From: a virus
Taxonomy: Duplodnaviria > Heunggongvirae > Uroviricota > Caudoviricetes
Virus record (IMG/VR): IMGVR_UViG_3300034157_000063
DNA length: 64,000 bases
Direction: 5' to 3' (one strand)
In this document: in pieces, positions 2,514-63,438 of the stretch
Position numbering within the stretch: position 1 is the first letter of the stretch
How the letters are laid out: each line of letters starts with the position of its first letter
The notes under the pieces: generated by a model
Database searches by the model: none
The model's input: the letters and a program-made list of their open reading frames with translations, nothing else
Told to the model about the DNA's origin: nothing
Program-made: the position numbers and the translations under genes

Positions 2514-3149
2514 ATGGATTATTTTGAAAAACGTAAATTATTTAAACAGTCTTTCATTAACTTTCTTGAAGGGACTGAACTGACACCTAAACAAACTCAT
2601 TTTAGTCCTCACTTTGTTCTTAGGGAAAACAATAAGCTAGGCGAAGCTGTCTCAACTGGAAATCTCGATAGTGCCGAAGAATTAAAGGATTTCTTCTTAC
2701 AGCATGTTAAACAATTTAAGCATACAGCTTTCATTAAAAAAATGAAAAAAATTATTTTAAAGTATTCAAAACTATTAAATTTGGATATTGAATTTTTTGA
2801 TATGTCAATTTCCACTGATATTGAACTGAATCTTGATTATAAAAGCCTTCTAGACATTGATAGTATTTCATTTGTGTTGCGAGGAAAAGGCGGTAAAACA
2901 GGATATACGACTTTTCATTTTTGTGCCTACTTATCTGCTGTTGAAGCTTCCTATGAAATTGCTGAATTAGATGGTCGTAATTTTGAACATCAGTCCATGA
3001 TTGTCATTTGTGTGAATCATAAAAAAGTGGATGACATGATTCTTCCTATGTTAAATTCTTACAAGGACATTATCTCTCAATTAGTGGGATATGAAGTCAC
3101 GCATGTTGATGAAGATATTATTACTGTCTTAGACATGATTAAAATATAA
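2514..3149 (+). CDS. hypothetical protein with shared C-terminal motif (..TVLDMIKI)
   Basis: Start moved to ATG 2514 after GGAG, because the ORF-track start overlaps a UUCG hairpin. Confidence 0.7.
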   Translation: MDYFEKRKLFKQSFINFLEGTELTPKQTHFSPHFVLRENNKLGEAVSTGNLDSAEELKDFFLQHVKQFKHTAFIKKMKKIILKYSKLLNLDIEFFDMSISTDIELNLDYKSLLDIDSISFVLRGKGGKTGYTTFHFCAYLSAVEASYEIAELDGRNFEHQSMIVICVNHKKVDDMILPMLNSYKDIISQLVGYEVTHVDEDIITVLDMIKI

Positions 3150-3184
3150 CTGACGATTTATACATAAAAATATAACAAATAATA

Positions 3185-3207
3185 AGAAGCTTCGGCTTCT
3201 TTTTTTT
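3185..3207 (+). terminator. intrinsic terminator with UUCG loop
   Basis: AGAAGC-TTCG-GCTTCT plus T-run. Confidence 0.8.
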
Positions 3208-3723
3208 GTTTCTATTATATAGTTTTTTTTATGACTTATTAGTCAAAATATGTTCAATTATTTAAAATTTAATTTCGTAAATTTTTATTTTATAAAAATA
3301 GCATTAAAGTAATATTACTTAACCTACATCAACAAACCAAGAAATGTCAATTTATTCATATTTTAATGATTTTTTTAAATTTATTTTTATTTTTTTTTAA
3401 AAAACTTTTAAGCCTCTAAATACCTCTAAAAACGCCTATTTACATTCAATGGTAAATTGATTTTTTAATTAATCTTGTTAGTTTTTATATTTTTGTAAGT
3501 TATTGATACTGCTCAAGAATATATCACAAATGATATGTTAAAATCATGTCTTTCCATTTAAACCTCTATGCTAATATTTAATTTTTTATATATCTAAAAC
3601 CGACAGAAAAAACGTAAGTTCCTCTAAATAAAGGCTTTTTTTAAATGTTTTTTGAAAATTATCATCTTGACATAGTTTTTAAATGTGTTAATTTCGTAAT
3701 AATTAGATCAAGGGGAGACTAAT

Positions 3724-5025
3724 ATGTTTACTAAAAACAAAGAAAGAATTGCAAGCTTAACTTTTGAAATAGAAGCTATGAAGTCGGTTCAAGAACATAT
3801 CAGTCTCTCAACTGGTATTATTCATTTCGACTCAAACGGAACAGTTGAACATGTTAATACTAAAATGCTATCATTGTTGGGTTACGATATTCAAGATCTT
3901 AAAGGTCGTAATAACTCTGTTCTGCTTTCCAAAGATTATTTGAATAGCACAGAGTATAAAGATTTATGGAGTGACCTTAGAAAAGGCATTTCAGTTAATC
4001 AAACCATCATGTTTGTGAATAAGCATAACCACTCAATGTGGTTTGATTGTGTTTATACTCCAATTGTTGATTCAACTAAAAGAGTGTTAGAGATTATTGG
4101 TGTATTTACTAACATCAATGAGTTAGTGGGGTCAAAAATAGAAGTTGATCATAAATTAAAAGCAATCAACCTTTCAATGGCTATCATTGAATTCAGTCCT
4201 GATGGCGTCATTTTAGATGCTAATGAAAACTTCTTAAAAACGGTTAAGTATGCAAAAAAAGAAATTGTGGGTCAACACCATTCTATTTTTTGTGATAATG
4301 ACTATAAAAAGAGTCCTGACTATCGCCAGTTTTGGGATTCATTGAAAAAAGGCACTTTCTTTTCTGATAAATTTAAGCGTGTCGATAAGCATGGTCGTGA
4401 ACTTTGGTTAGAGGCTTCTTACAATCCTGTATTTGATGAAAATGGTTGTGTGTATAAAGTGATTAAGATTGCCAGTGATACTACCAAATTCATAGAGCAA
4501 TATAACAATCAAAAAGACATTTCTGATTTAGCTCTATCACTCTCAGATAAAAGTGTCATCTTATCTAACAGTGGTGTAGACTACATTCAGCAAACAACTA
4601 AAGAAATGCTCAACATTAAAGAACATGTAGATATCACCAATGGTCATTTGAATTCATTGCATAACCAGTCTAATAAAATCAACTCTATTGTTGATACTAT
4701 TAACAAGATTTCAGTTCAAACAAACTTGTTGGCATTGAATGCGGCCATTGAAGCAGCAAGAGCCGGTGATGCTGGTCGTGGATTCTCAGTGGTAGCACAG
4801 GAAGTTAGAAATTTATCTCAAAACACTGAAAGTGCTGTGAAAGAGATCTTTGAAGTGATTAGCAATATTCAAGAAGAAATCAACTTGTCATTGAAGCATA
4901 TTAACAATGTGATTAATGATACAGAGAATAGTCGTAATCTTGCTGCGAAGTTAGAAGAGGTTATGATGAATCTGCAGTCAGTCATTGTGGACAGCACAAC
5001 AGTGATACGAAATAAAACTGTTTAA
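3724..5025 (+). CDS. soluble methyl-accepting chemotaxis protein with two PAS domains (BdlA-like)
   Basis: Two PAS/PAC repeats ([27 protein letters not shown]), MCP signalling hairpin [30 protein letters not shown], no transmembrane segment. Confidence 0.9.
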
Positions 5026-5036
5026 AAAAAGAGCCT

Positions 5037-11046: not shown

Positions 11047-11151
11047 GGTTTGAGTTACAGAAAAGGTCGCTTTCGAGCGACTTTTTTATTGCCTATGAAA
11101 AAGTATTATGGTATAATCCTACCATCTAAAATGATAGTGAAAGGTGCATTG

Positions 11152-11808
11152 ATGAAAGAGATTAGCAAGATTGACAAGTCCACACAAAAGAAAATCGGTG
11201 ATTTTCTGATGACCAACTATGGCTATGAAAAAATTGGCTACACACAAGGCAAAGCGAAATCTTACTTCATGTGTGGTTCTGATTTGTTGGAAGTGTCTCG
11301 CCGTCCTTTGATTGGTGCTGGTAAAGACGTATTCCACTATTCAATTTCATCCAATAGCCAGAGCTTGACAAAGAACTTCATTAAAAACCAGAAGGTTGTT
11401 GATTTTATCTTTAATGCCATTCGTGACATTAACGGTCTGAAGTATGATGTTGTGAGTAATGATAACCAAACTATTTCTCGTATCAAGGTCATTGATTTTG
11501 TTATTCATGCTTTTGAAGGCCGTCTAGAAGACTTCCAGAGTGAGTATAAGCCAAGTGTAGGCTTTTGGGTGTCCACCACAGGGAGTGAACGACTATCGTA
11601 TGTTATCGTTCATGCTGATGGCCGTGTGAACTATGCAGGTGCTGAAATCACAGCTAAGCAGTTTGGTGAATACTTGATTAATGATTATGCCGCTTACATT
11701 GCAAAGATTGATGAATTTTTTGAGCATGATGGTCAACACAAGACGTTTGATGAACGTGTCGATGACTTAAAGAATACAATGATGACAAAAGAAATGTTTG
11801 CAATTTGA
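11152..11808 (+). CDS. hypothetical protein (weak C-terminal motif ..TKEMFAI)
   Basis: Start moved to ATG 11152 after AAAGGTG, because the ORF-track start overlaps a terminator hairpin. Confidence 0.7.
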   Translation: MKEISKIDKSTQKKIGDFLMTNYGYEKIGYTQGKAKSYFMCGSDLLEVSRRPLIGAGKDVFHYSISSNSQSLTKNFIKNQKVVDFIFNAIRDINGLKYDVVSNDNQTISRIKVIDFVIHAFEGRLEDFQSEYKPSVGFWVSTTGSERLSYVIVHADGRVNYAGAEITAKQFGEYLINDYAAYIAKIDEFFEHDGQHKTFDERVDDLKNTMMTKEMFAI

Positions 11809-13041: not shown

Positions 13042-13662
13042 ATGTCACTATTCTTATTTGTTGTGTTTGCCTGCATTGCTATTCCAATGCAATTCCTATT
13101 GAATTACAAATTGACTCCCGATTTTTCAAATTCCTATTTGATTAAAAGTCTTATACCAACTGTTGCGTTGGCAATTGCTGCAATAATTGAATACACCTAT
13201 TTTACTAGTACAGTGTTTGCTTTGCTCTTTGCTTTTTCAATGGGCTATATCTTTCTTAAATTATTGATGTTTGCAGCCATCACATCATATGTTATTTTGA
13301 CTGATAAAATTGAGAGTGATAGCCTTCCATCCATGAAGTTGTTTTTAAAGAACCTTAAAGTGAGAAGCTTTTATTTTTCGAAAGGCAACTCTAATATTTA
13401 TTTTCTCAACAACGATGGTGTGAATATTTACTTCGACAAATACAGTTCTGAATTTGATACGCTTTCAAATGCTCATGTGACGTATTTTGCTAACTCTCTT
13501 GTTGATGATAGCTATAAGAAAATAGAACTTAATAAATTTGTCATCCTTAATGTTAAGGAACGGTTCATGTCTGTTTCGTCAGAAGAACTAAAAACGCTTG
13601 ATGTCCCCATTGAGAAAATCACCAAAGAACATTTTGATTTGTTGCAGATGATGAAAATTTAA
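13042..13662 (+). CDS. membrane protein, tandem paralog 1 of 3
   Basis: About 3 N-terminal TM segments, shared NIYF..NGVNIYFD motif, C-terminus DLLQMMKI. Confidence 0.8.
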   Translation: MSLFLFVVFACIAIPMQFLLNYKLTPDFSNSYLIKSLIPTVALAIAAIIEYTYFTSTVFALLFAFSMGYIFLKLLMFAAITSYVILTDKIESDSLPSMKLFLKNLKVRSFYFSKGNSNIYFLNNDGVNIYFDKYSSEFDTLSNAHVTYFANSLVDDSYKKIELNKFVILNVKERFMSVSSEELKTLDVPIEKITKEHFDLLQMMKI

Positions 13663-13681: not shown

Positions 13682-14296
13682 ATGTCACTTGAAATATTTC
13701 TGATTGTTCTCTTTGTCGGTCTACCAGCTTATATATTCTGTAATTATAAATTTGCGTCTCAATTTACTAATGCTTACTTATATAGAAAGTTGGCTGGACA
13801 AGCTATTCTTGTGGTATTGTCATTTGCTGAATATTTATATTTTAACTCATTGGTGATGGGTATCATATTTACATGTTTCATTGCATGGGAGTTATTACAA
13901 GTTATTGGTGTTTTAAGTATTATTGCTTTCATTACATTTACAGGAAAAGTAGATAAAAGAGAGTCTAAAATTTTTACCTTATTCTTTACTCGTTTAAAAA
14001 TGAGAAGCCTTTTTAAAGTGAACTCTAATATTTATTTTTTCAAGAATAACGGGGTTAACATCTATTTTGACAGTGCCAGTGATAATTATCAGTCGTTGTC
14101 AGAATATTCTCTTAGGCTATTTAAAGACAGTCTCAAAGAAGAAAAGTCGAAAAACATTTCATTTGATGATTTCTTAGTATTGAATTATGATGACAACTAT
14201 ATTTCGGTGTCTTCTGCTGATTTGCAACTCATTGATGTGGATATATTCAATATGGATAGAAGTCATTTTGATGTGTTAAGTATGTTAAAAATATGA
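13682..14296 (+). CDS. membrane protein, tandem paralog 2 of 3
   Basis: Aligns by eye with 13042; C-terminus DVLSMLKI. Confidence 0.8.
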   Translation: MSLEIFLIVLFVGLPAYIFCNYKFASQFTNAYLYRKLAGQAILVVLSFAEYLYFNSLVMGIIFTCFIAWELLQVIGVLSIIAFITFTGKVDKRESKIFTLFFTRLKMRSLFKVNSNIYFFKNNGVNIYFDSASDNYQSLSEYSLRLFKDSLKEEKSKNISFDDFLVLNYDDNYISVSSADLQLIDVDIFNMDRSHFDVLSMLKI

Positions 14297-14361: not shown

Positions 14362-14988
14362 TTGATGACATTTTCATTTGTGGCAGCCATTACAGTCATT
14401 GTCCAATTTCTAGTTGGTGTTTTGGAATACAAATATCCGAAGTCGTTGACACATGGACTAATGATAAAAAGGCTTATACCACTGGCGTTTGTCTCTGTTT
14501 TGGCATTGATGGAATATGTATTGACTGGGTACCATTATTTTACTTACTTCTTGGGTGCGTGTCTTGGCTTTATGTTTCTTGCTACGCTTGGTGATGTGTG
14601 TAAATATTTTTATATTCTTAAGGCTAAACGAAAAGCTGATTTCAATGAGAATACAACAGACGCACTATTCTACTTGAATTGGAAGATTAAAAATTTCTGT
14701 TCAACCGACCAAGTGTCTAGAACGTTTTTCTTCAAACAAGATGGTCTTACTGTTTTTTTTGGAGAACCAGATTCTTCATTTGAAGCAATGGATAAGACAA
14801 AATTGCAATTGTTTAAAGACAGTCTTACACAATCAACGATGGGTCACATTAAATTTGGTGGATTTTTAGTTATCAAAAATAAAGATGATTATATCTCATT
14901 GTCGTCTGATGAATTTCAACTGTTCAACGTGCCAATTACAAAAATTAATCAAGATACTTTTAAAGCAATTGAAATGATTAAAATTTGA
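14362..14988 (+). CDS. membrane protein, tandem paralog 3 of 3
   Basis: LQLFKDSL..F..FLV....YISLSS motif shared with both neighbours; C-terminus AIEMIKI. Confidence 0.8.
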   Translation: MMTFSFVAAITVIVQFLVGVLEYKYPKSLTHGLMIKRLIPLAFVSVLALMEYVLTGYHYFTYFLGACLGFMFLATLGDVCKYFYILKAKRKADFNENTTDALFYLNWKIKNFCSTDQVSRTFFFKQDGLTVFFGEPDSSFEAMDKTKLQLFKDSLTQSTMGHIKFGGFLVIKNKDDYISLSSDEFQLFNVPITKINQDTFKAIEMIKI

Positions 14989-15062
14989 GTTTATTTTCAA
15001 AATAACCTTCAGTTTTGCATTTAATTATGGTATAATATTAAGATTAACTTTTGGGGTGTATT

Positions 15063-21305: not shown

Positions 21306-21327
21306 AATAGCCTTCGGGCTATTTTTT
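21306..21327 (+). terminator. intrinsic terminator with UUCG loop
   Basis: AATAGCC-TTCG-GGCTATT plus T-run. Confidence 0.8.
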
Positions 21328-21379
21328 GTTGCTTCAACTTTTTAAATGTAGTATACTCTTCAAATTATTAGGAGCCTCA

Positions 21380-22039
21380 ATGCACATTCTTTTTAAGAAA
21401 TTCTTTAACCTTGATGACACGGTTCAGTTTCCTGATGACATGGAAACTGGCTTTCAGTCTCTTGCTGGATTCGGTTCTATCAAAAAGAAGACCGCTAGCG
21501 ACTCATTCATTATTAAAAAGTGCGAAGATCCTTTAATCATTCGTCTTCATAATGAAGCGGTTGAAAGTTATCATCAATTTGTGACCGCTTTTAATAATAA
21601 TTTCACTAATGGCTATACTCATCACAAGACTTTTAAATTGTTAAGGTCAAAAATTGATTTAGTTCGTGAGGAAATTGAATTTCAGTTTATTAACAAAAAT
21701 AAGATTTTTGTTCTTTATTCAAACCATTTTGAATTTAAAGGTAAGAATGGACAAAAAGAAGTGGTGAGCATTTGTTACCGTATTCCTATTGATGAAAGAG
21801 AACCATCAGAATGCACTGTTAAATTTGATTTAATTAAAGTGCCTTGTAACTATAACTATTATTCAGAGTCGGCTCTTGATTTCAAATACACAGGTAAGTA
21901 TTATCCAACTAATTTGTTGACTATTGTTTTTATTTGGAAAAACTTCCGCACACAGATTGAAGAACAGTTTGAGAGCATTGATAAATTTGTTGAGAACTTT
22001 GATGATAATATTAAAATACTTACTATGCTGGTGTTCTAG
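21380..22039 (+). CDS. hypothetical protein with shared C-terminal motif (..KILTMLVF)
   Basis: AGGAG SD before ATG 21380. Confidence 0.7.
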   Translation: MHILFKKFFNLDDTVQFPDDMETGFQSLAGFGSIKKKTASDSFIIKKCEDPLIIRLHNEAVESYHQFVTAFNNNFTNGYTHHKTFKLLRSKIDLVREEIEFQFINKNKIFVLYSNHFEFKGKNGQKEVVSICYRIPIDEREPSECTVKFDLIKVPCNYNYYSESALDFKYTGKYYPTNLLTIVFIWKNFRTQIEEQFESIDKFVENFDDNIKILTMLVF

Positions 22040-22196: not shown

Positions 22197-22748
22197 ATGA
22201 ACACACAAATTGCAGCTATTGCTAAGTATTTTGGGGTAACTGAATATACGATTGATAACTATTGTGGTCTTATTGGTGATTTACGAGTTAAGCTAGCTCG
22301 ATATGAAGATTCAGTGGTTGTTTTTAAATATTCACAAAAACTTAATCCTTTCAAGAAACAAGTTGCTGAGCATCAAGAAGCTATTTTGAACACTCTTGAT
22401 GGCTTGTTTGCTTTCAATAAAAAAACATTTTTGCAACAATACAGCATTACTCATTATATTGCTGTTGATAAAAAAAATGATGATAAGGTTTCTTTTTACA
22501 CCACTTACACAAAAAATAATAGAGGTCATTTTCCACTGGATATCAAAGTTTTTGGTAAAAATGAATTTTATGAGGTGAACTTTACTATTGTTTCTTGTGA
22601 TGACGAATTTTATATTACAGGTTTTGGTGACAAACGTATTGATAATCTTAAAGAGTATTTCTTGTTAAAAAACTGTCAGTATGATATTAAAAGAATGTTC
22701 GGTGAAGAAGAGTTTAATAAAGACTTGATTGATATGTGCTTCATTTAA
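22197..22748 (+). CDS. hypothetical protein with shared C-terminal motif (..DLIDMCFI)
   Basis: ORF with upstream TATAAT box. Confidence 0.7.
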   Translation: MNTQIAAIAKYFGVTEYTIDNYCGLIGDLRVKLARYEDSVVVFKYSQKLNPFKKQVAEHQEAILNTLDGLFAFNKKTFLQQYSITHYIAVDKKNDDKVSFYTTYTKNNRGHFPLDIKVFGKNEFYEVNFTIVSCDDEFYITGFGDKRIDNLKEYFLLKNCQYDIKRMFGEEEFNKDLIDMCFI

Positions 22749-27931: not shown

Positions 27932-28693
27932 CTAGATCAAGTAGGCAAAATAAAGGTCAAGGTGACTTTGTTCAAAACTTTCGTATTCATATTCATTATT
28001 TGAGAAGAAGATCTGCAGTTCCTTTCTCCAGCAAAAATGAAAAATAACTTTTTCGAAATACATTCTAATAAATTCACTGGCTTCTTCTATGCTATTGAAT
28101 TCATCTTTTAATACTGTTTTTGATCGAGCATGGGGATCGGTTGTAAATACTACAACTTTGTCACCTTTTAGATGATAAGCTACTGTAAATTTATGTTTTT
28201 GAATTTCTTGAACAATTGAATTAACAATAGTAAATTCATTTTCATTCATATAAAAGTATTTGAAAATTCTCATTGGTTTGTTGTAATAAGACTTCCCAGT
28301 TGTTTTTGTTTTAAGTTGATAGACATCATTATCAACAAAATGACTACTGAGCATAATATCACTCTTGTAAAAATCAATCTCAGCTTGACTATGTTTAATC
28401 AATCCCATTTTAATATACGTGTTAAAAACAACATCAATAATTTTTTGTTCCATCTCTTTGGGCATCAGTGTAATTTGATCGTTAAGTCTACTGATGATGT
28501 GACGATACTTCTGGTTGCTGTCGGCTGGAAATGCTGCAGATTTCTTTGCTGTAATTGTATACATTTCATTTTTGTCACTGACTGGGAACACTGCATAGTG
28601 TTTTAACATTTCAAAATTATCAAAAATGTTTAGAAAGTCTTTATTTTTGAGCATGGATCTACCATGTTTTGCAAACAGTTCGTTGACACTCAT
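27932..28693 (-). CDS. hypothetical protein with variant C-terminal motif (..DLYFAYLI)
   Basis: AAGGAG SD before ATG 28693. Confidence 0.7.
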   Translation of the reverse strand: MSVNELFAKHGRSMLKNKDFLNIFDNFEMLKHYAVFPVSDKNEMYTITAKKSAAFPADSNQKYRHIISRLNDQITLMPKEMEQKIIDVVFNTYIKMGLIKHSQAEIDFYKSDIMLSSHFVDNDVYQLKTKTTGKSYYNKPMRIFKYFYMNENEFTIVNSIVQEIQKHKFTVAYHLKGDKVVVFTTDPHARSKTVLKDEFNSIEEASEFIRMYFEKVIFHFCWRKELQIFFSNNEYEYESFEQSHLDLYFAYLI

Positions 28694-28814
28694 TTCTAGC
28701 TCCTTTAAATAACCACAGATAATTATAACATTAAGCAACACTATTTTCAAATATATTTTTCAATAGGGCTTTCAATTACTGCTTTATCTTGGTATTATAT
28801 ACACAACATACTTA

Positions 28815-34765: not shown

Positions 34766-34778
34766 GAGCAGTATTACA

Positions 34779-35471: not shown

Positions 35472-35529
35472 ACTGATGTTTTTAGTTTACGTGACAATTT
35501 AAAATTATACTTTGGAGGTTATCAATCAT

Positions 35530-43605: not shown

Positions 43606-43712
43606 GCTATAAACACTTTAAAATTTTGTTATTTAACTCATGTTATTTTGTTGGTATTAATGACTCAATTATGCTATAATATTAGCATTAAATTTAAATC
43701 TTGGAGTGGATA

Positions 43713-44657
43713 ATGCTTACAATTGATGAGGTTAAAGATTACTTAAACATGCCAGAACTCCCTATTCTACACACGAATAGTGAACGAAATTTTTATGTGA
43801 AAAAAATCTATGATGATTATTATTGTTCAAATCACGATCAATCTATCATTATTCGAGCCTTTGACGATTTTGAACCCATTAGTGTTTCAACGTCTCGCTA
43901 TTTTTCTGTCTACGTTAATGATTTTGTCGTTTTGACGTATGTAGGTGATCACTCTTATAATTCAGACATCTTCAAGATTTTTGATGGATTGCCCTTCATG
44001 ACATTAACACCAGAACATTTTTATTTTTTTATTACTGAAATCAATACAAAAGGCAAAGATTGTATTGTCTATTTCGATAGACTGTCTGAAAAAGTTATTG
44101 ATTATAATGGTGATCAGAATATCAATATCGTGTATGTTTGTTTGAAAGAACAAAAATATAAGGATAAATCTTTTTATAAAATTGTGAATGGTGAAATCTT
44201 GTTTGCTTTTGGTTTATACACTAATCAATATTTTGGCAGTGATGAATATAAAAAATATTTTGATAAAATAGCTTATTTGAGAAAATATTACAACTTATAC
44301 ACCTTTATAATCTATCAGTCTATTAATGCGGACACTGTTCGTTTGTTGGTGAGTACTTATGATTTTGAAATCGTGTTGAATAATTCAGTGACTCATAAAC
44401 ATCTGTTTGAAGAATCTAATCATTCAGCGGCTTATATTTACGAAAAAAATAAGCGTACAACTCCGATCACTATTAATACCATTGAGAGTGGTGATGCAGT
44501 CGGTGACTTAATTGAAAAAATTATTGATGGAGTGTTGAAAGAATATCCATGTTCATATTTCGATCTGTTTTTATCCGATGGAGGTGTGCGTTACACATCT
44601 TTAGATGATAAAGAAATGGATGACTATGTTAAATTATTCAGGATGAGCACGATCTAG
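43713..44657 (+). CDS. hypothetical protein with shared C-terminal motif (..KLFRMSTI)
   Basis: GGAG SD and promoter upstream. Confidence 0.7.
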   Translation: MLTIDEVKDYLNMPELPILHTNSERNFYVKKIYDDYYCSNHDQSIIIRAFDDFEPISVSTSRYFSVYVNDFVVLTYVGDHSYNSDIFKIFDGLPFMTLTPEHFYFFITEINTKGKDCIVYFDRLSEKVIDYNGDQNINIVYVCLKEQKYKDKSFYKIVNGEILFAFGLYTNQYFGSDEYKKYFDKIAYLRKYYNLYTFIIYQSINADTVRLLVSTYDFEIVLNNSVTHKHLFEESNHSAAYIYEKNKRTTPITINTIESGDAVGDLIEKIIDGVLKEYPCSYFDLFLSDGGVRYTSLDDKEMDDYVKLFRMSTI

Positions 44658-44981: not shown

Positions 44982-45377
44982 TTGAGTGACTATGCAGAAT
45001 TTGAGATTGCAGCGGTATTAAATAATGTTATGATTATTGATAAATTATTCAAAGCTAATGGAAATATTCATAAGATTTGTTCACATTTGCAAACTGAAAA
45101 TGAAAGGTATCACGAGGAATCTGTAACGGGTTTAGATGTGGTTCGGGATTCTGATGATTATAGTTTTATGATTTATGCCAAAGATTTTAGATTTCGCATT
45201 AAAGAAAACATGATTTCTATTTTTTATGGTGAGTTTGGGATTAACGTTAACACTAGAACAGGAGATTCAATAGAAAATTTTAAACTATTATTTCTGACTC
45301 TGGTTAATATTCATTCCGACCAAAAATTTGAGAATGTTGAGCAATTCGTTGATCTGTATAACATGATTCATATTTAA
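44982..45377 (+). CDS. tandem-array family member (half-length), C-terminus ..DLYNMIHI
   Basis: NNVMIIDKLFKANG motif shared with the array. Confidence 0.7.
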   Translation: MSDYAEFEIAAVLNNVMIIDKLFKANGNIHKICSHLQTENERYHEESVTGLDVVRDSDDYSFMIYAKDFRFRIKENMISIFYGEFGINVNTRTGDSIENFKLLFLTLVNIHSDQKFENVEQFVDLYNMIHI

Positions 45378-45473
45378 GTCTTTGGAGTGTCCTATGCTTT
45401 TAAAAAATGATTCAACCTTACTTGATTCAATTTAAAAATTAGAGATCTCACTTTATTGTTACAGGAGAAAAAA

Positions 45474-45914
45474 ATGATTACCGTTGAAAACGAAATTAAA
45501 AGATTAGTGTTTAATAACATTTTAATTGTTGATGAACTCTTTAAAGCTAATGGGAAGATTTATGACGCTTGTCTTTCTTTACAAAATGAAAATAAATATG
45601 CTCATACTGAACGTATTAATGGGATGCAATTTACAAGATATCTAGGCAACAAAGCGTCTGACAACTATAATTTTACTGTTTATATTGATTCTCTTATGTT
45701 TTCTATCGAACTAGATCTTATTGTTTTTAAATATGGAGAGCTATCTATCCGTGTCGATTTTAAAGTTGGTCCAGATGAAGATACCCCTGATATACGGCTT
45801 GAAAAAATTAAAACATTTAAAGCTCTCTTTCTTTCTTTAATAAACATTAAAGCGGATCAAACATTTGAAAATATCGATCAATTCGTTGATCTCTATAACA
45901 TGGTTCATATTTAA
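45474..45914 (+). CDS. tandem-array family member (half-length), C-terminus ..DLYNMVHI
   Basis: Close paralog of 44982 (NNILIVDELFKANG). Confidence 0.75.
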   Translation: MITVENEIKRLVFNNILIVDELFKANGKIYDACLSLQNENKYAHTERINGMQFTRYLGNKASDNYNFTVYIDSLMFSIELDLIVFKYGELSIRVDFKVGPDEDTPDIRLEKIKTFKALFLSLINIKADQTFENIDQFVDLYNMVHI

Positions 45915-45930: not shown

Positions 45931-46701
45931 ATGTTGTTAAAAAATGATTCACGATTACTTGAAGTTTATTTTAACATTAGTGATTTGGCTCAATTTGAGG
46001 TTGATACGACATTCGCCAGTGAATTAATATCGCCCAGCGAAAAACGGTTTTTAATGAACGCTGTTCGTGCTTTAGCAAACGACATATTATCAGTTTCAGG
46101 CGACTTTAAAACCAGTATTAATTTTTATATTCGTCAATCAGGTTTATTGATTGAAATGGACTCTTCTTATCCATTTTTAATGCAATCATCTTTTAATTTT
46201 GAATTGTCTGAACCTTTAATTAAAGATAAGTCTCTAGATCATTATGTGAGCGATTTAATTTATCAAAATGATCGATATCGAACGTATGGGAGTTATTTAA
46301 CTCTTGTTGATTTTAGGTCTTTCTTTGAAAACATTAGATTTATTGACAACTTATTTGAATTTGATGGTAAATTTTATTCTTTTTATAAAGACATTGATTT
46401 TACAATGGGGGCACGCGAATTTAAATTTGATTCATTTAATTCTTTCGTACATTGTGGTGAACACCCCTTGTTAAAAATTCAATTTGGAGATCTTCTGGTC
46501 ACCATTTCCCCTGATGAGTTTTCTTTTGCTATTATGGGTGGTTCCGCTATTTTGACCATATCTAAGCAGAGTAGAAGGAATTATCATCAGAAAAAAGATA
46601 ACTTAGCAAAGCTTATTATAGATATGTATAATATGGAGTTGATGCTAGAAGTTGATACCATGAAAAATTTACTGCTATTGATTAGAATGAAGGCTATTTA
46701 G
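45931..46701 (+). CDS. tandem-array family member, C-terminus ..LLIRMKAI
   Basis: ALANDIL, SYPF and ENIRFIDNLFEFDG motifs. Confidence 0.75.
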   Translation: MLLKNDSRLLEVYFNISDLAQFEVDTTFASELISPSEKRFLMNAVRALANDILSVSGDFKTSINFYIRQSGLLIEMDSSYPFLMQSSFNFELSEPLIKDKSLDHYVSDLIYQNDRYRTYGSYLTLVDFRSFFENIRFIDNLFEFDGKFYSFYKDIDFTMGAREFKFDSFNSFVHCGEHPLLKIQFGDLLVTISPDEFSFAIMGGSAILTISKQSRRNYHQKKDNLAKLIIDMYNMELMLEVDTMKNLLLLIRMKAI

Positions 46702-47015: not shown

Positions 47016-47858
47016 ATGTTTGATGAAAGTCTGCCTTATCAGTTAAAAACTGGTAGGCAATTAATAAAGTTGTCAGATTTAAAAAATGCGGAAATCATAG
47101 GCGTTCAGGATGAACACAATTTAAAAATTTCTCGTTTTTTAAACATTCTTGCTGATGATATTCTGTGTATGCGTGATGATGTAAAAAGTTATGTTTTTAT
47201 AGATATTGTTGATGACGTATTTTCTATATGTATAGACCATTCATATCCTTTTTTGGAATTTTTAAACAGTTCTAATCCCGTTAAAATAAATGAAGCATTG
47301 AATGGCGTTGATTTTCTTTTAAATCTAAATCTATCAATAGATTTAATTACTCCGGCCTTGTTGGCGATATTTCTTGATGAATTAAAAGCTGATGGTTGGT
47401 ATAAATTTAATGATGATGATGAGCGAGAATCGGAAACTGGTTTAATGGAACAGTTCATTCACATCAATGCATTGGATACTTTTTATGTGTTTGATATCAT
47501 CGATCAGGCATTAGGCTATGATGGAACACTATCCAAACGGGTTAAAAATAATATTTACCATGTAATGCCATTCTCAGAAGAAGATGAGTTCTCAATGTTT
47601 GAATTTAGAAACTTTAATTCAAATAATATTGAGATGACACTCACCAACCATGATTTCTATATTAAAGTTATCAATAACACTATTAGATTTGAATATTTAT
47701 ATGATTCGATGGAGTTTAATTTAAATAAAAAACATCCAGTGGCCTTTAATATTAAAAAGTTTACTCAATTCTTTTTAAGTTTTTACAATATTCAACATGA
47801 TACAGACCATGATGACTTACCCCGCTGGATTAAACTGCAGGAAATGATAGCCATATAA
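47016..47858 (+). CDS. tandem-array family member, C-terminus ..KLQEMIAI
   Basis: ILADDIL, SYPF and IIDQALGYDG motifs. Confidence 0.75.
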   Translation: MFDESLPYQLKTGRQLIKLSDLKNAEIIGVQDEHNLKISRFLNILADDILCMRDDVKSYVFIDIVDDVFSICIDHSYPFLEFLNSSNPVKINEALNGVDFLLNLNLSIDLITPALLAIFLDELKADGWYKFNDDDERESETGLMEQFIHINALDTFYVFDIIDQALGYDGTLSKRVKNNIYHVMPFSEEDEFSMFEFRNFNSNNIEMTLTNHDFYIKVINNTIRFEYLYDSMEFNLNKKHPVAFNIKKFTQFFLSFYNIQHDTDHDDLPRWIKLQEMIAI

Positions 47859-47986: not shown

Positions 47987-48826
47987 ATGGCTAAATCAAA
48001 AAAAGATAACGAAATTATTATGCTTTCCAATAATGACAACCATACTGTTATGTTAACCGATTTACGTCGAGTAAACATTGAAGGAATCAGTAAGCAAAAA
48101 AATAATAGAATGTTAGCCTACTTTGACCTACTTGTTGACGATCTTTTAATTTATAACGGCGATTTTGAGTTAGATGTCGAAATTTCAATGAGTGCTGATA
48201 ACATGTTTATGAGTATCATGTTAGAAAAATCATATCCTTATTACTACGATTGTATTTTTCTTTGTTTTGATCTGAAAGAAAAAGCAAGTATTCAAAGTTT
48301 ATCGAGAGCACTTACTAATGTTGACAGTGAGGAACGCAATGATTGGGATGACAAAGATGATATTGTGAAATTTATTGACTGCAGTATTGGTTACGATCAT
48401 GAATTGATGTTGAGTGATTACCCACCTATGTTTATTGAGTATGGGTGTGGATTGATGAGTAATGTTCGCCTTGTTGATAAAGCACTCTATTTTGACAATC
48501 AACTGGTTAAGACTTTTCATGATAATAACATATACACAGGTAATGATATAAGAATTGATTCGTCATCATTTACGTTTACTATGCAGGGAACAAGAGAGCC
48601 TGATCTTTTTGTTAATTCCACTTACCTTGATATTAGAATTGAAAATGATGGTGTGAAGTTTACGTTTGATAAGGATAATACGTTTACCTTTACAACAACG
48701 ACTAATTTTGAACGTGACTTTAATATGCTGCAGATGTTCATTAAAATGTTTATTGAAAAAAAGAAAGATCACGATATTCATGATTTGAAAAGTGAGCTTT
48801 TGTTGATTGAAATGGAAACTATTTGA
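47987..48826 (+). CDS. tandem-array family member, C-terminus ..LLIEMETI
   Basis: LLVDDLL, SYPY and NVRLVDKALYFD motifs. Confidence 0.75.
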   Translation: MAKSKKDNEIIMLSNNDNHTVMLTDLRRVNIEGISKQKNNRMLAYFDLLVDDLLIYNGDFELDVEISMSADNMFMSIMLEKSYPYYYDCIFLCFDLKEKASIQSLSRALTNVDSEERNDWDDKDDIVKFIDCSIGYDHELMLSDYPPMFIEYGCGLMSNVRLVDKALYFDNQLVKTFHDNNIYTGNDIRIDSSSFTFTMQGTREPDLFVNSTYLDIRIENDGVKFTFDKDNTFTFTTTTNFERDFNMLQMFIKMFIEKKKDHDIHDLKSELLLIEMETI

Positions 48827-48827
48827 A

Positions 48828-49152
48828 ATGAATGAATATAAATATTTACTTAATGCCGATAATTTTTACATGTCTTCCATGACAGACTTAAAAACAACAA
48901 CATTTAAAAAATTAAAAGATGAACATAAACGAACATTATTAAATAGGTATTTAAGCCTGTTAGTTGATGATGCCTTATCTAACAATAAACCTGACTTCAA
49001 AATAGAATTTCACATGGCTACGTACTGACTGTATGGATCATGATACATTAATGGTTAATCAATTTTTTATTATTTATCTTGAAAAATGGCTTGGTCATAA
49101 GATTACAGATTTAAAAATAGAAATACAATTACTTGAGATGGAGTGCATTTAA
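48828..49152 (+). pseudogene. internally deleted, frameshifted tandem-array member
   Basis: N-terminal fragment 48828-49028 (LLVDDAL) and, in another frame, C-terminal fragment 49033-49152 ending KITDLKIEIQLLEMECI*. Confidence 0.6.
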
Positions 49153-49941
49153 ATGAAAAATGAAGAATGGGAATTTGATGTAGATTCAGACTCCGATTAT
49201 TATTCTGTCTTAATTTCAAGTGGTCACTCATACCATATGTTACTGAGTTCATTAAAGAATATTACAATTATTGATAGTAATCACACGCCCACTGATCATG
49301 TTAATATGCAAAAATATCTCACCTTGATTGTAGACGATGTTTTATTGTTTGGTTATAATGTTGAAGTTAGTTTTAGCCTCTCTATCAATAACCACATTAT
49401 GTTGTTAGAAGTTGAAAAGCTATATCCCTTTGTAAAAGATAATATTGATTTTAGGATCGATCTTACACAAGATGTCGATATTAAGCATGTGGTGGCAATA
49501 TTGGATGACACCGTTGCTCGTGATGAAGCTAATAATAATCATATTCATTACACTGATCTTAAAAATCGGAACACTTTAAAAAACGTTGATATTGTTGATA
49601 ATGCATTATTTTATGATGGAACATTGAAAGAGAGTTTCTTAAACAATTTAATTAAAAGTGACTCCTTTAAATTTTCTTTTTTCGATATGTCTATTCTGAA
49701 CAATGGCGTTTCTGGTATTGAACTTCGCTCTGAAATTTATGACATGTCTATTTTTATTAATCAAGTTAAGGTTACTTTCAGATTAGCGGATGATTCATAT
49801 AGCTGGAACTTTACAGATGATACCGAATTTGATATTTTGTCTATTCGTCAATTATTTACATTATATCTAAGCAAACTTTTAAATAAAAAAATAACTGATT
49901 TAAAGCGTGAGATACAATTAATTGAAATGGAGTCTATTTAA
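49153..49941 (+). CDS. tandem-array family member, C-terminus ..QLIEMESI
   Basis: LIVDDVL, LYPF and NVDIVDNALFYDG motifs. Confidence 0.8.
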   Translation: MKNEEWEFDVDSDSDYYSVLISSGHSYHMLLSSLKNITIIDSNHTPTDHVNMQKYLTLIVDDVLLFGYNVEVSFSLSINNHIMLLEVEKLYPFVKDNIDFRIDLTQDVDIKHVVAILDDTVARDEANNNHIHYTDLKNRNTLKNVDIVDNALFYDGTLKESFLNNLIKSDSFKFSFFDMSILNNGVSGIELRSEIYDMSIFINQVKVTFRLADDSYSWNFTDDTEFDILSIRQLFTLYLSKLLNKKITDLKREIQLIEMESI

Positions 49942-50702
49942 TGTCAAATACCTATTTTAAAAAAATTGAGATTGAAAGTGGTAGCACTTACGCATTGTTT
50001 GTAAGTGAATTAAAATATATTTCTATAATTGATATTCCATATACTTCTTTTGAACATTTACAGATGATTAAATACATTGATATGATTGTTGATGATGTGA
50101 TGGTTTATGGAGTTGATTTTAAAGTTGAATTTAGTATTTATATTGATCATCAAACAATGAATTTTGAATGCAATTATCTTTATCCATTCATTAACGGTCT
50201 AGTCATATTTATTATCGATCTGAGTCGAGATGTTAGCGTTCAACGTGTTTCTAAAACACTGGATCATATGATTGATATCAATATCATGCATGATCAGCAG
50301 ATTAATTATACAGATCTCAGTCAGCATACTATGTTTGGTAACATTGATATCGTTGATCAAGCCTTATTTTATGATGGTAAATTAAAAGAAGTATTTTCTA
50401 AGCGTTCACTTTTTGAAGAAAGTATTAAATTTTCCTTCTTTGACTTAAATTTTTTAAATAATGGGGCGACGGAAATTCAACTTCTTTCTCTCAGTGCTGG
50501 TGTATCTATTTGGATTGATATTAATAAGGTTTCATTTAGATTTGATGGTAAAGATTCATCTAGTTGGTATTTTACTGATGAGGCTTCATTTGATATGTTA
50601 TCAATACGTCAATTATTTGTACTCTACCTTGGCAAAAAATTGAATAAGCCCATTATAGACGTTCGAAGAGAAATCCAATTGATTGAAATGCAAACTATTT
50701 AG
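49941..50702 (+). CDS. tandem-array family member, C-terminus ..QLIEMQTI
   Basis: Close paralog of 49153; TAATG stop-start coupling. Confidence 0.8.
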   Translation: MSNTYFKKIEIESGSTYALFVSELKYISIIDIPYTSFEHLQMIKYIDMIVDDVMVYGVDFKVEFSIYIDHQTMNFECNYLYPFINGLVIFIIDLSRDVSVQRVSKTLDHMIDINIMHDQQINYTDLSQHTMFGNIDIVDQALFYDGKLKEVFSKRSLFEESIKFSFFDLNFLNNGATEIQLLSLSAGVSIWIDINKVSFRFDGKDSSSWYFTDEASFDMLSIRQLFVLYLGKKLNKPIIDVRREIQLIEMQTI

Positions 50703-55181: not shown

Positions 55182-55336
55182 GTTCAATATTTCTCCTAAT
55201 TGATTTAATGTAACATCAAATAATACGCTCATAAAGCACTTAAGTCAAGCACCTTTATGCTTTTTTTTGTGATTTTTTGATAGCATATCTTCTTATCATG
55301 TGATATCATTAGGCACCAATAATGTGGAGAATATTT

Positions 55337-56041
55337 ATGGCGTTTTTAAATTTTACAACCCGAGAAGAATTCATGGCAATTGTCTATGCTGACAAGGATA
55401 CTGTTCGATTGACCAATTCCAAAGATGCTCCGTCAGAACTAGCTCTTATTGAATCTTTTGGTTTTAAAAGAATAGAGCGTGGCAGTATTGAACACGCTAT
55501 TAGTTTGCATGGCATTACCTATCGTTTTATTGATGAGGCGACTGACACCACCATTTATGTATCATTCAGTAATCCAGTGAAGTTGGGTACTGGTATCTCG
55601 TATATGCTCAATAAACATTTTTTCTCTACGTCCAAGAAAGTGTATCACAGAGAAAATAGCCAGCCAGCGTTTATTAGTTATCATGGGAGTGGTAAGCCAC
55701 ATATTGAAAACTATGCAATCAATGGACAAACACCAGCACTTACCATTATTGATGGAAAAGAATACGCTTATCTGACTACTATCAAATCGACCAGAACAAC
55801 TAAAGATTATCTGTTCAAAAAACAAAAATGGCACGCTACTCAATATCGACTCAACAATAAAACAATGACGCCATTACAAGTTACCTATTACAATGATAAA
55901 TTTCCAACAAGCTTTATTGAATTCCATGCTTTAAAACGACTGTATCCTGATTTGGCTCGACTGGTTGGTTATGAACGTATCAATTTAAATAAGAGTTTGA
56001 CACCCGAAGAAATCACGCTGCTTGAAATGATGATGTTTTAA
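55337..56041 (+). CDS. hypothetical protein with shared C-terminal motif (..TLLEMMMF)
   Basis: GGAG SD. Confidence 0.7.
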   Translation: MAFLNFTTREEFMAIVYADKDTVRLTNSKDAPSELALIESFGFKRIERGSIEHAISLHGITYRFIDEATDTTIYVSFSNPVKLGTGISYMLNKHFFSTSKKVYHRENSQPAFISYHGSGKPHIENYAINGQTPALTIIDGKEYAYLTTIKSTRTTKDYLFKKQKWHATQYRLNNKTMTPLQVTYYNDKFPTSFIEFHALKRLYPDLARLVGYERINLNKSLTPEEITLLEMMMF

Positions 56042-57421: not shown

Positions 57422-58465
57422 GTGATACGACATTATGATTTACTTTTATCAGAGATAAAAACCTTTTATGATTTAGATAATTGCCCTGTTATTCAAGGCA
57501 GTCGATGCAATGTTTATTTACTTGATAGAAGTCCAAGAGATTATCAATTTATGGTGAATCTCTTCAGACCTGAGAATGCCAATCATAACATTTCAAAAAT
57601 TAAACAAATGTCATCGTTGTATGATTTACTTCATCACGTTGATTCTGAATATTCCACCATTAGTAACAAACAGTTAAGGATTGAGATTCAACATGTTTCT
57701 GAATCCAATGATAGAGGTCTTGTTCAAGTTTCTTTTGGACATGTCCTTCATTTTTCAATAGAAAAAAAGGCGAAAACGATTCCAGAAGAAATTCGGTGTT
57801 GTTCGTTAGTTGTCAAGGATGGCTCACGTATTGACAATGAACAGTTTGAAGTAAATTATTCTGAATTACTGGCAAAACTTGCTCAATTTATTGATAAAAA
57901 TATGACCATTCAGGAATTTAATGAGCGAGATAAAAAAACGCTAGATGAGATAAGAACCGAGAATTTGAACAACAAAGATCTTACTTATTGCAGTAAAGCA
58001 GATTGTGCTACCTATTTCTATAGTTTTCCACGACCACCAGAAGATTTTTTTGTGCCATTAACAAGAGTTTTTAGTAAAAATCTTATGCACCAAGTTAAAA
58101 CGATTGAAGCATTACTTCGTTTTGAATCGGATCTTCATCATAATCGATCTGTTTATGAGTTGGTATTTAACCATAATCTTTCTGATTTTAAATTTATACT
58201 TCCAAATCTCTTGTATTCTATCACTTTTGAGTATGAACAGGATTTAAATTTAAGTGTAACACTTTACTTTCAATTTAAAACGGATGTGCTTCGGTATCTT
58301 GAAATTGATCATTATACACACAAGAAGGTTGATATATTGGGGTATGAAGCGATCTACGACTATATTTCAAATCGTATTAAAAAGTTTATCACTTCCAATC
58401 TTGGGGTGTCACAGGAAGAGATAACAAACGAATCAATTTTGCTTTATAGAATGATGGCAATATGA
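57422..58465 (+). CDS. hypothetical protein with shared C-terminal motif (..LLYRMMAI)
   Basis: 347-aa ORF; GGAG SD; GTG start. Confidence 0.7.
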   Translation: MIRHYDLLLSEIKTFYDLDNCPVIQGSRCNVYLLDRSPRDYQFMVNLFRPENANHNISKIKQMSSLYDLLHHVDSEYSTISNKQLRIEIQHVSESNDRGLVQVSFGHVLHFSIEKKAKTIPEEIRCCSLVVKDGSRIDNEQFEVNYSELLAKLAQFIDKNMTIQEFNERDKKTLDEIRTENLNNKDLTYCSKADCATYFYSFPRPPEDFFVPLTRVFSKNLMHQVKTIEALLRFESDLHHNRSVYELVFNHNLSDFKFILPNLLYSITFEYEQDLNLSVTLYFQFKTDVLRYLEIDHYTHKKVDILGYEAIYDYISNRIKKFITSNLGVSQEEITNESILLYRMMAI

Positions 58466-61344: not shown

Positions 61345-61357
61345 TTGCTCTTATCTT

Positions 61358-62461
61358 TTAATACTCTCTTGGTTTTGGTTCTTCATCCAGTAAACAACCA
61401 CGTAGACGACGATCTTTTACAGGATCTTCATCTATCACACCAATCATAATATTGCTTTTATCCACTAGACTGGTGATGTATTCCCACTCTTGTCCTTCTC
61501 GTTCATAGTGTTGACCAATAGAACTGAATGCACCATCAGCGACTTTCACTTCCATTCTTTTTTCACCATTTTCATCAAGTTCTTCTTCATCATCGTCATT
61601 ATTGACAAGTTCACCATCGGAAGCAACAACTTTTAGTTTTGGTTTTGCGTCTTCAATTTCTTGGGCTTTCTTATCATCTTCACGTTGAGCATCGAGTTCA
61701 TCCATTGAAGCAAGAATCATTTCTTTTTGAATCTCGGCACTTTGTGGAGAATAACTCCATAGTCCATCACTGAATACAGCTTGCATGATTTCAAGGAGCG
61801 TTACGCTGTCTTCTTTTGAACTTTCAACATAGTTAATGTAATCGTAATGATTAACGCCAACCGTTTCTTTGTTGATGACTAAACCTTTATCTTCGGCATT
61901 ACGGCTTTCAAACTCTATGAATACAATGGATCTGTTAAGAATAAGTGGAACGTTTTTAAGTTCATCAACGCTAGTCATAGACATTGAGTAATTGCTTGGA
62001 TCGCCATCATTATAACCATTAATGTCAAAAGATGATTCCATTTCGAAGAAATTAAGAAACTCAGGTTCTTTTGGGGTGTTAAGCCACTCAATAAAATCCA
62101 TACCTTCTGGCATTTTGCCATAATCAACTTCACGACTAATAGACATGTTACGTCTGACTTCAATTCGATCAAAGGCATTTTTGGCTGTTGATAGTTTACG
62201 AGCTTCTTTGATATACGCTTCTACGTTCATATCGAGAATATCACCAGCCGCTTCTGCCCAAGGCTCTAAGCAAATCATGAATGAACCCAACGTTGTGCCT
62301 TTTTCGAGTAGAATGAGTTTCTTTACATTCTGGATAAAGAACTTATATCCATCCAGTCCTAGTGCTTTTTGAATAGCGAGCATAGGCACAAGACGTTTTT
62401 GGTCAACGTCTGATTGAAACCTTAGTATTCCATCTTTACAAAAAACTATTTTTCCATCCAT
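61358..62461 (-). CDS. acidic hypothetical protein
   Basis: Long ORF with GAGG SD. Confidence 0.75.
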   Translation of the reverse strand: MDGKIVFCKDGILRFQSDVDQKRLVPMLAIQKALGLDGYKFFIQNVKKLILLEKGTTLGSFMICLEPWAEAAGDILDMNVEAYIKEARKLSTAKNAFDRIEVRRNMSISREVDYGKMPEGMDFIEWLNTPKEPEFLNFFEMESSFDINGYNDGDPSNYSMSMTSVDELKNVPLILNRSIVFIEFESRNAEDKGLVINKETVGVNHYDYINYVESSKEDSVTLLEIMQAVFSDGLWSYSPQSAEIQKEMILASMDELDAQREDDKKAQEIEDAKPKLKVVASDGELVNNDDDEEELDENGEKRMEVKVADGAFSSIGQHYEREGQEWEYITSLVDKSNIMIGVIDEDPVKDRRLRGCLLDEEPKPREY

Positions 62462-62600
62462 AATACGCCTCATAATTAAGATTTATAAAATACAACATTC
62501 TTCAATGATAGTCAATCTTTTTTAAAAAACTCTTTAAATCTAGGTTGTCTTGTGTTATTATAGTGTCTACATATTAATAACCAGATGGAGTTTTAAAATT

Positions 62601-62765
62601 ATGAACAAATCATTGATGGCTGACATTGCTGAATCTTCTGTGACCGAAGCAGAAATTGAAGATCTTGATTATGATGTAAAGGAAGCTACTTTACCTCGTG
62701 ATGGCTGGGTCGAACTTGAAGTACCCTGCTCAGGTGCCTTAAAGAATCCTACTGATGTTGCCTAA
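62601..62765 (+). CDS. small acidic hypothetical protein
   Basis: GGAG SD before ATG 62601. Confidence 0.5.
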   Translation: MNKSLMADIAESSVTEAEIEDLDYDVKEATLPRDGWVELEVPCSGALKNPTDVA

Positions 62766-63438
62766 TCTATTGTTACCTATGAATGAGAATTATTTGCCCA
62801 ATAATATGATTACAGATCATAGGGCATTTATTCCTTCGTTGGACTCTTTATTGAGTGCCGATAGATTAGTGAATAACAATCTTCTTTTTCATATGGATAA
62901 AGAAGCATTTTGTTCATTTATGGAAATGCATGGATATCATTTCGATAAGACAATCATGCCCGCAAAAAGCACTACATTAAAATTCACCAACAAAACGATG
63001 ACTGTCCTTTTTCAAAAGGTAACCGTAGAGAATAAACGTCTGTTTACTGTTTTAATGATCTCTTACAAAGAAGGTGATGTGGCCTCTGTTGTTTTTAATT
63101 ATGATGGAAGCTTTTATGAAATCACTTATAGAAGTAATAAAGATTTTCATATCGTTAAGAAAACTTCATTATCGCGTTATAATGATGGTAGCATCTACTA
63201 TCAATTTATTGTTCATAATAGCCTTCACTTAAAATGCTATTTATCTTCTTTTTGCTTGAATAAAGGAGTTATTCAAGATGTTTTGTATTTTGTACACAAC
63301 AAATGCTATCCATTGAATAAACTATTAAATGCATTAGGTAGACCAGAAATAGAAGTCAGTGCTGTGAGTAATTACTTGGATTTGGTTAATTTATTTACCA
63401 ATGATGAAGCGATCATTATTGAAATGGCTCTATGTTAA
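62755..63438 (+). CDS. hypothetical protein with variant C-terminal motif (..IIIEMALC)
   Basis: 227-aa ORF. Confidence 0.65.
   Translation: MLPNLLLPMNENYLPNNMITDHRAFIPSLDSLLSADRLVNNNLLFHMDKEAFCSFMEMHGYHFDKTIMPAKSTTLKFTNKTMTVLFQKVTVENKRLFTVLMISYKEGDVASVVFNYDGSFYEITYRSNKDFHIVKKTSLSRYNDGSIYYQFIVHNSLHLKCYLSSFCLNKGVIQDVLYFVHNKCYPLNKLLNALGRPEIEVSAVSNYLDLVNLFTNDEAIIIEMALC

Follow-up and report, generated by a model that had tools for sequence, protein, structure and literature searches.

Microcompartment encapsulation peptides and encapsulin cargo-loading peptides are short terminal amphipathic tags which are read by a shell protein. ClpX reads C-terminal tags such as those of ssrA (…LAA) and MuA (…KKAI). 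In multigene families of large DNA viruses, the poxvirus ankyrin/PRANC (F-box-like) proteins join a variable body to a constant C-terminal adaptor module. The signal of EsxB (CFP-10) is a C-terminal helix whose Leu94 (position -7), Met98 (-3) and terminal Phe/Ile insert in the ATPase3 pocket of EccC, and loss of any one recognition residue abolishes binding (PMC6954902, citing Champion et al. 2006 and Rosenberg et al. 2015 on this signal). Here we describe a short C-terminal element, hereafter the tail, found on 22 proteins encoded in a 64,000-nucleotide stretch of viral DNA of the class Caudoviricetes (IMG/VR record IMGVR_UViG_3300034157_000063; the window is this whole stretch). The proteins of the window map, in a protein database, to a contig of 1,917,244 bp, and relatives were found on contigs of 1.85 and 1.84 Mb; the source is an uncultivated, phage-like element of about 1.9 Mb which is almost entirely unannotated. 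With a probability of about one half, we consider the tail to be a constant C-terminal docking helix which ties a fast-evolving cytoplasmic repertoire to one putative partner.

An independent call of non-overlapping open reading frames (ORFs) of at least 60 residues gave 81 ORFs in the 64-kb window and reproduced the tail at the end of every member listed in the initial annotation. Some of the starts deviate a little from those given there: for seven members placed at 2514, 21380, 34779, 35530, 43713, 45474 and 11152, the longest ORFs begin at 2463, 21326, 34755, 35512, 43701, 45456 and 11050, respectively. Eighteen ORFs close with the strict pattern [LIVMFYA][LIVMFYQ]xMxx[IFC]-stop, three are Ala variants and one is a weak match. 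Together these 22 carriers make up about a quarter of the window genes and about 29% of the coded residues; one 5'-cut ORF and one decayed remnant bear the tail in addition. When the expectation was taken from the rate of the strict pattern inside the same proteins, 0.04 terminal matches were expected against the 18 found (p = 1.5e-42). Met stands at position -4 in 21 of the 81 ORFs compared to 2.05 expected (binomial p = 9.5e-16), and Ile is the last residue in 22 of 81 compared to 6.1 expected (p = 8.7e-8). The enrichment is independent of paralogy, because the count is also extreme when each sequence family is counted once (10 of about 68 families, p = 3e-22). A six-frame control covered 1655 stop-to-stop segments of at least 20 residues and returned 23 strict matches, namely the 18 genes, the 5'-cut ORF (ending at 179), the remnant (ending at 49152) and three segments among the approximately 1570 in non-coding frames. 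The enrichment of the tail is genuine and far beyond chance, and the AT-composition artefact which the initial annotation had named as a possible refutation is ruled out by the comparison with the internal rate of the pattern and by the six-frame control. The codons of the tail vary synonymously (ATT, ATA and ATC for Ile; TTA, TTG, CTG, CTT and CTA for Leu) and all three stop codons are used after it; selection therefore acts on the peptide and not on a DNA motif.

The tail comprises the last 13-15 residues, with the consensus φ-[T/D/S]-x-x-[E/D]-φ-x-L-φ-x-M-x-x-I (φ, hydrophobic) followed by the free carboxylate. The family-weighted information is 4.3 bits for Met-4, 3.0 bits for Ile-1 and 1.9 bits for Leu/Ile/Val-7. 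Met-4 is present in 11 of the 13 groups of carriers and the remaining two groups have Ala. Position -6 is preferentially aromatic or aliphatic, -5 acidic and -9 hydrophobic, while Thr/Asp/Ser and an acid near -13 and -11 have the look of a helix N-cap; positions -2 and -3 are the least conserved. The hydrophobic face is wide, including -6 and -9 in addition to -1, -4 and -7. In both of the AlphaFold models described below the tail forms a helix of 11-12 residues, and it is predicted to be a short amphipathic helix. No match to the tail element was found in Pfam or PHROGs. Searches of the 22 carriers against the same collections gave scattered matches only, with one member per family and best E-values of 0.003-0.09, and no Pfam family was common to the 22 carriers at E up to 0.1.

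The bodies of the carriers were compared after removal of the last 16 residues by BLASTP, phmmer, all-against-all hhalign and a hidden Markov model (HMM) profile of 45 family C representatives. They fall into 12-13 groups, three with several linked members and nine or ten consisting of a single carrier. Family A contains three paralogs on the forward strand, at 13042..13662 (206 residues; three transmembrane helices and a small α/β domain; tail TKEHFDLLQMMKI), 13682..14296 (204 residues, DRSHFDVLSMLKI) and 14362..14988 (208 residues, NQDTFKAIEMIKI). Family B consists of two forward-strand Ala variants, at 34755..35471 (238 residues, TQNMKFIYSALVI) and 35512..36222 (236 residues, TDEMKFLFEAVAI). 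Family C forms a forward-strand cluster with five members at 45931..46701 (256 residues, TMKNLLLLIRMKAI), 47016..47858 (280 residues, DLPRWIKLQEMIAI), 47987..48826 (279 residues, DLKSELLLIEMETI), 49153..49941 (262 residues, DLKREIQLIEMESI) and 49941..50702 (253 residues, DVRREIQLIEMQTI), and two half-size paralogs which match the C-terminal half of the others, at 44982..45377 (131 residues, equal to the C-terminal domain; VEQFVDLYNMIHI) and 45456..45914 (152 residues, IDQFVDLYNMVHI). A decayed family C gene lies at 48807..49152 (+), with a 73-residue N-terminal piece followed in another frame by a 48-residue piece ending in LLEMECI, which is the fragment placed at 49033 in the initial annotation.

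The single carriers of the forward strand are those of group F at 2463..3149 (228 residues, soluble and acidic, with no relative among the other carriers; DEDIITVLDMIKI), group G at 21326..22039 (237 residues or a shorter start, with an ortholog in the 1.85-Mb relative; DDNIKILTMLVF), group H at 22197..22748 (183 residues, NKDLIDMCFI, 11 orthologs at 57-85% identity), group E at 43701..44657 (318 residues, very acidic; MDDYVKLFRMSTI), group J at 55322..56041 (239 residues, basic; TPEEITLLEMMMF), group K at 57422..58465 (347 residues or a shorter start; TNESILLYRMMAI) and group L at 62755..63438 (227 residues or a shorter start; TNDEAIIIEMALC). Two lie on the reverse strand, the Ala variant of group I at 27932..28750 (272 residues, QSHLDLYFAYLI) and group D at 38596..39708 (370 residues, ITLSHIKVYEMLHI), whose orthologs keep the tail down to 44% identity. 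The 5'-cut gene, of which only the 3' end is present at 3..179 (+), was detected in the six-frame scan and ends in LDLLAMVMI-stop. The weak carrier, group M at 11050..11808 (+; 252 residues, DDLKNTMMTKEMFAI), keeps only M-4 and I-1, and its ortholog in the 1.85-Mb relative is 96% identical. Its TTG start lies within 4 bases of the stop (11046) of a DUF2201/VWA gene, downstream of a MoxR-like AAA+ gene. Among the tail-like proteins it alone is apparently co-translated with a candidate machine, and this translational coupling to the VWA gene is just a lead.

The carriers are mostly acidic. The initial annotation had them both soluble and membrane-bound and on both strands, which is the case: family A has its three transmembrane helices, and no signal peptide or membrane segment was found in the carriers outside this family. 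In family A a Lys/Arg-rich stretch directly follows the last membrane helix. Because of this stretch and the positive-inside rule, our own reading is that the soluble domain and the tail of family A probably face the cytoplasm. The tail would accordingly be expected to meet its reader in the cytoplasm or at the inner membrane face, and a membrane-anchored carrier argues against simple capsid loading.

No similarity between the body groups was found by BLASTP, phmmer, hhalign or the family C HMM. Matches between the bodies of two carriers were no better than those between carriers and non-carriers, and in a grafted-tail control the true carriers outside family C scored no better against the family C profile than chimeras of the tail on non-carriers (p = 0.21). 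Within family C, the members are 14-20% identical to each other. The AlphaFold2 model of the family C protein at 49941 (alignment of 48 sequences; predicted local distance difference test score, pLDDT, 89.4) is soluble and has two α/β domains, the second consisting of two helices, six strands, a long helix (215-234), a loop and the tail helix (241-252). The model of the family A protein at 13042 (32 sequences, pLDDT 69.7) shows a bundle of three transmembrane helices and a small β-β-α-β-β domain, in the order three transmembrane helices, helix, hairpin, helix, hairpin, short helix and tail helix. As modelled, families A and C appear to have different architectures. When the C-terminal domain of family C was matched by structure to known α+β sandwiches, a comparison that took in the sandwich of type III secretion chaperones and frataxin-like proteins (helix, antiparallel sheet and helix in two layers), the matches mostly stopped at residues 232-238, before the tail helix. 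In the fold search with the family A model most matches were to the transmembrane bundle, and the result is uninformative for the soluble domain. Searches of PDB sequences with the family C and family A profiles gave no match, none of the SUKH families of Pfam matched any carrier, and the ESM Atlas model of the protein at 38596 is poor (pLDDT 0.35), while for the proteins at 57422 and 22197 this resource gave no usable match. The earlier description of the bodies as mostly unrelated thus holds by sequence and for the two modelled architectures. Both models close with a sheet, a helix, a loop and the tail helix, and to that extent an ancient C-terminal domain common to all carriers is possible.

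Several observations speak for a separable module. Five of the 45 representative clusters of family C (228-241 residues) end at or just after the penultimate helix, without the tail helix. These tail-less clusters are stable in length, with up to 16 members on up to 29 contigs, and one tail-less member is encoded on the 1.85-Mb relative beside tailed paralogs. Since such members exist in nature, the fold of family C does not need the tail, as expected of a separable docking or targeting module. The end of the protein is also fixed. The initial annotation had placed Met at a constant distance from the free C-terminus, and in 93 homologs of families A, C, D and H it stands exactly at -4 in 80, with only two extensions, of one residue each. 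A structural terminal helix would normally tolerate ragged ends, so this fixed end speaks for a module. In family A, all of 30 homologs retain M-4 and I-1, even at an identity of only 22%; the retention of Met points the same way, because a buried site should change freely between Leu, Ile and Val.

The loci of relatives that we compared (L002 and L013 of the 1.85-Mb relative, and L011 and L012) were reached solely via exact-protein look-ups; relatives were not found in INPHARED (by DNA), IMG/VR, a metagenome contig collection or GTDB genomes. Most neighbouring genes are 90-98% identical between the window and the 1.85-Mb relative, and the carriers range from 96% down to 44%. The tail was conserved at least as well as the body in nine of nine carrier pairs, and in the two fastest orthologs the conservation was 0.73 for the tail vs. 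0.43 for the body, and 0.67 vs. 0.46. The tail of the protein at 22197 is identical in 10 of its 11 orthologs, and the eleventh reads LVDMCFI (Ile to Val at -6). The ratio of nonsynonymous to synonymous divergence (dN/dS) of the bodies was 0.14-0.40 in carriers as against 0.03-0.27 in non-carriers (Mann-Whitney p = 0.007), and the carriers are real genes under relaxed but purifying selection. Against L002, dS was 1.0-1.2 at the carriers 38596(-), 44982 and 35512 as compared to 0.2-0.35 at their neighbours, which suggests cassette-like replacement by divergent alleles or paralogs and not divergence in place. L002 also encodes a tandem paralog of 38596 with 27% identity, ending in LELYKMVKI. At the position of the decayed gene at 48807-49152 the relative has an intact family C gene of 347 residues (L002:348-1391), with respect to which the remnant shows an internal deletion and a change of frame; gene loss is ongoing in this cluster.

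In a more distant relative, whose DnaK is 80% identical, Met-4 is kept in the family C cluster. At L012, where family A is 49% identical, about 10 of 29 ORFs have the same tail on bodies which mostly find no match in the window, and 40 pooled carriers make up 20 body clusters. The tail, but not the set of bodies, is common to the window and distant relatives. Only 50 representatives of family C were found among 1.84 billion proteins, and this rarity implies that the tail system is confined to this clade. The idea of genome-specific tail 'dialects' was rejected, since distant relatives keep the same tail and the variant endings in family C are features of subfamilies. At L011:10986-12832, a distant relative has two genes within its family C cluster that lack the tail, one PheRS-alpha-like (tRNA-synt_2d) and the other for a true SUKH_5/SMI1-KNR4 protein. 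Hypervariable loci also occur among non-carriers: the L013 ortholog of 8965-9447 is only 36% identical, and 11836-12468(-) is replaced in L013 by an unrelated gene of 281 residues, in both cases with neighbours that are 95-98% identical.

The EsxB signal and the tail are both helices of about 16 residues at the extreme C-terminus with Leu at -7, a Met, and Phe or Ile as the last residue. The EsxB pattern, LxxxMxF or LxxxMxI-COOH, docks in a hydrophobic pocket of a P-loop ATPase. Its Met is at -3, whereas the tail has Met at -4 together with Leu/Ile/Val-7 and Ile-1. EsxB substrates are helical hairpins of the WXG100 family with YxxxD/E, whereas the carriers are α/β proteins and a membrane family, and no WXG100 family was detected on any carrier (Pfam, E up to 0.1). 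Type VII secretion systems (T7SS) occur in Actinomycetota and Bacillota, whereas the promoters and the DnaK in the window look proteobacterial; regarding an ATPase of the FtsK-SpoIIIE type such as EccC/EssC, the AAA+ gene seen in the 64-kb window is MoxR-like only. We regard the EsxB signal as the nearest precedent in form and claim for the tail a likeness of form only, not membership in that system. Compartment tags resemble the tail as short terminal amphipathic peptides on unrelated proteins, separable from the fold of the cargo. They differ in being attached through flexible linkers to recognisable enzymes, whereas here no enzyme has the tail, a short linker is seen that the models show as ordered, and the carriers include a membrane-anchored family. 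A screen of 31 window proteins, with no search of the remaining genome, detected no shell-protein family. The PRANC proteins share with the carriers that many fast-evolving proteins of a giant viral-type genome have a short C-terminal element. However, PRANC is a Pfam-detectable domain of about 30-40 residues on one type of body (ankyrin repeats), whereas a 15-residue element on many types of body, negative in Pfam and PHROGs, is found here, and no Pfam-detectable F-box-like/PRANC module was found on the 22 carriers (E up to 0.1). In the literature on phage C-terminal tags and megabase phages we found nothing applicable.

The same tail on at least 12 unrelated body groups, unchanged across distant relatives, is consistent with a mechanism in which the tail helix would be the constant handle of large, fast-turning-over, mostly acidic, cytoplasmic 'variable' proteins. 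It would be read in trans, presumably through Leu-7, Met-4, Ile-1 and the terminal carboxylate, by a putative partner encoded elsewhere in the 1.9-Mb element or in the host, while the bodies may provide target specificity. A protease adaptor or a host hub could act as the reader, as could an ATPase or receptor that belongs to a route of loading, export or import; the partners named in the initial annotation (MoxR/VWA, DnaK, a protease, capsid loading and compartment import) are guesses. Several points weigh against this mechanism. The partner is putative and pinned to no gene, and at the distant locus L011 the tail is on family C members only. Loop and tail helix reach pLDDT values of 89-95 in the model of family C, where the tail is packed on the body as would suit an intramolecular element; the models cover two of the 12-13 body groups, one of them at moderate confidence, and the different folds that they show, which bear on the proposal that all carriers share one fold, are limited to that scope. 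The carriers are all ORFans of 131-370 residues with α+β character, and the tail is on none of the 14 proteins with Pfam domains (Fisher p = 0.009), in agreement with its reported absence from recognisable enzymes; both facts fit one hyper-diverged lineage as well as they fit a tag. Such a lineage, an ancient family in which the tail is the last helix of a shared α/β domain and packs intramolecularly as a cap or autoinhibitory latch with no partner in trans, is in our estimate an unlikely origin for the whole set. It draws on the packed family C model, on the tail being the best-modelled part of family A, on the common order of elements at the end of both models, and on the penultimate amphipathic helix and loop of 5-8 residues that can be seen by eye before the tail in many carriers. 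Divergence is moreover fast enough to erase similarity, as the 27% identical tandem paralog and the identities within family C illustrate. However, the conserved natural tail-less members of family C show a fold that stands alone, the helix almost never extends past Ile where ragged ends would be expected of a purely structural element, and a core position would seldom hold a near-invariant Met in place of exchangeable Leu/Ile/Val when all the rest has diverged. Profile similarity beyond the tail is absent even when judged against grafted-tail controls, and the architectures of families A and C differ. A latch which packs back when unbound would reconcile the packed model with separability, but this is speculation.

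A docking helix is also to be weighed against a shared C-terminal degron, through which an AAA+ protease of the host or the element would read the hydrophobic end and degrade the repertoire jointly or at a given signal. The motif has a fixed place at the free C-terminus, its last residue is non-polar, and -AI or -KI closes several of the tails. However, the last 2-5 residues are all that known C-terminal degrons require, whereas here about 15 are conserved with helix capping, and the positions -2 and -3 that are important in ssrA-type tags are the least conserved of the tail; we judge a degron improbable. We give still less credit to binding of tail to tail, by which the carriers would co-assemble through a bundle of C-terminal helices and every paralog would keep its helix. 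The wide hydrophobic face would suit it and a homotypic constraint would give concerted conservation without a separate partner, but with 12 residues the helix is rather short to form a stable bundle, and neither the fixed free end nor the preference for Met would be explained. The predicted complex of two unrelated carriers (44982 and 22197) scored 0.00, which is no verdict and carries no weight either way. The tail might be suspected to follow from AT-rich composition, or from a signal in DNA or RNA at the ends of genes, because the window has a G+C content of 33% and Ile, Lys and strings of Met-Ile-Lys are AT-rich. This reading is refuted by the terminal excess over the internal rate, the three matches in non-coding frames, the synonymous codons and the use of all three stops, and also by the retention of the tail in relatives at 22-50% identity.

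The window consists of short, tightly packed genes with bacterial-type signals, and the few genes in it that can be recognised are of the accessory kind usual in very large phages. They encode a soluble PAS-PAS chemoreceptor, the MoxR-like AAA+ protein with DUF2201/VWA genes, NADAR, three DEDDh exonucleases, an ADP-ribosylglycohydrolase, CYTH, a PNKP-type HAD phosphatase, a DsbA/ScsC-like protein, an R2K ATP-grasp protein and DnaK. The dnaK gene (36539-38458), whose product is about 75% identical to proteobacterial DnaK, stands alone, without adjacent grpE or dnaJ, and is among the most conserved genes of the region (98% identity in the close relative and 80% in the distant one). Extended -10 promoters (TGnTAnAAT, mostly TGTTATAAT or TGGTATAAT) were found 20-60 bases upstream of 26 of the 81 ORFs, which suggests transcription by a host polymerase of the sigma-70 type. 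A carrier-specific promoter or separate regulon was rejected, since these boxes precede carriers and non-carriers alike (Fisher p = 0.42).

Other recurrent endings occur on non-carriers. Four proteins, including the NADAR and PNKP-HAD enzymes, close with a Lys-rich stretch and Pro (15051-15623, 29576-30736(-), 32635-33840 and 56128-57312; …KKKSKSQP, …KKTKKSKP, …KRVKKFKPS and …KKPKMKP), compared to 0.09 expected (p = 2e-6). Looser versions are found at 52094(-) and 60820 and in relatives (…KRTMKP, …KHKIKP). The paralogs at 42083-43015 and 43201-43605 have the common fixed ending …C-R-V-N-[N/S], kept as …CRVNH/S in a relative.

A wider reading of the tail, which we put forward tentatively and hold to be somewhat less probable than its negation, extends the docking helix to a clade of megabase phage-like elements. 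There a universal address helix (L-φ-x-M-x-x-I-COOH), similar in logic to the peroxisomal PTS1 or the T7SS signal, would deliver hypervariable, unrelated effector-like proteins, dozens to hundreds in number and with membrane proteins among them, to a single undiscovered machine, and the bodies would be swapped rapidly by duplication, decay and allelic replacement in conflict with the host. The initial proposal that the carriers form an anti-defence library we keep as inference only. Were the tail an address tag, one peptide would identify the whole repertoire of an almost entirely unannotated 1.9-Mb element, and a single pull-down with it could uncover the machine that acts as reader. A linear C-terminal signal common to many unrelated proteins would be rare in the bacterial world, and the tag could be used for loading or targeting foreign proteins. 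Even with a single origin of the bodies, the frozen 15-residue end would mark a functionally critical surface.

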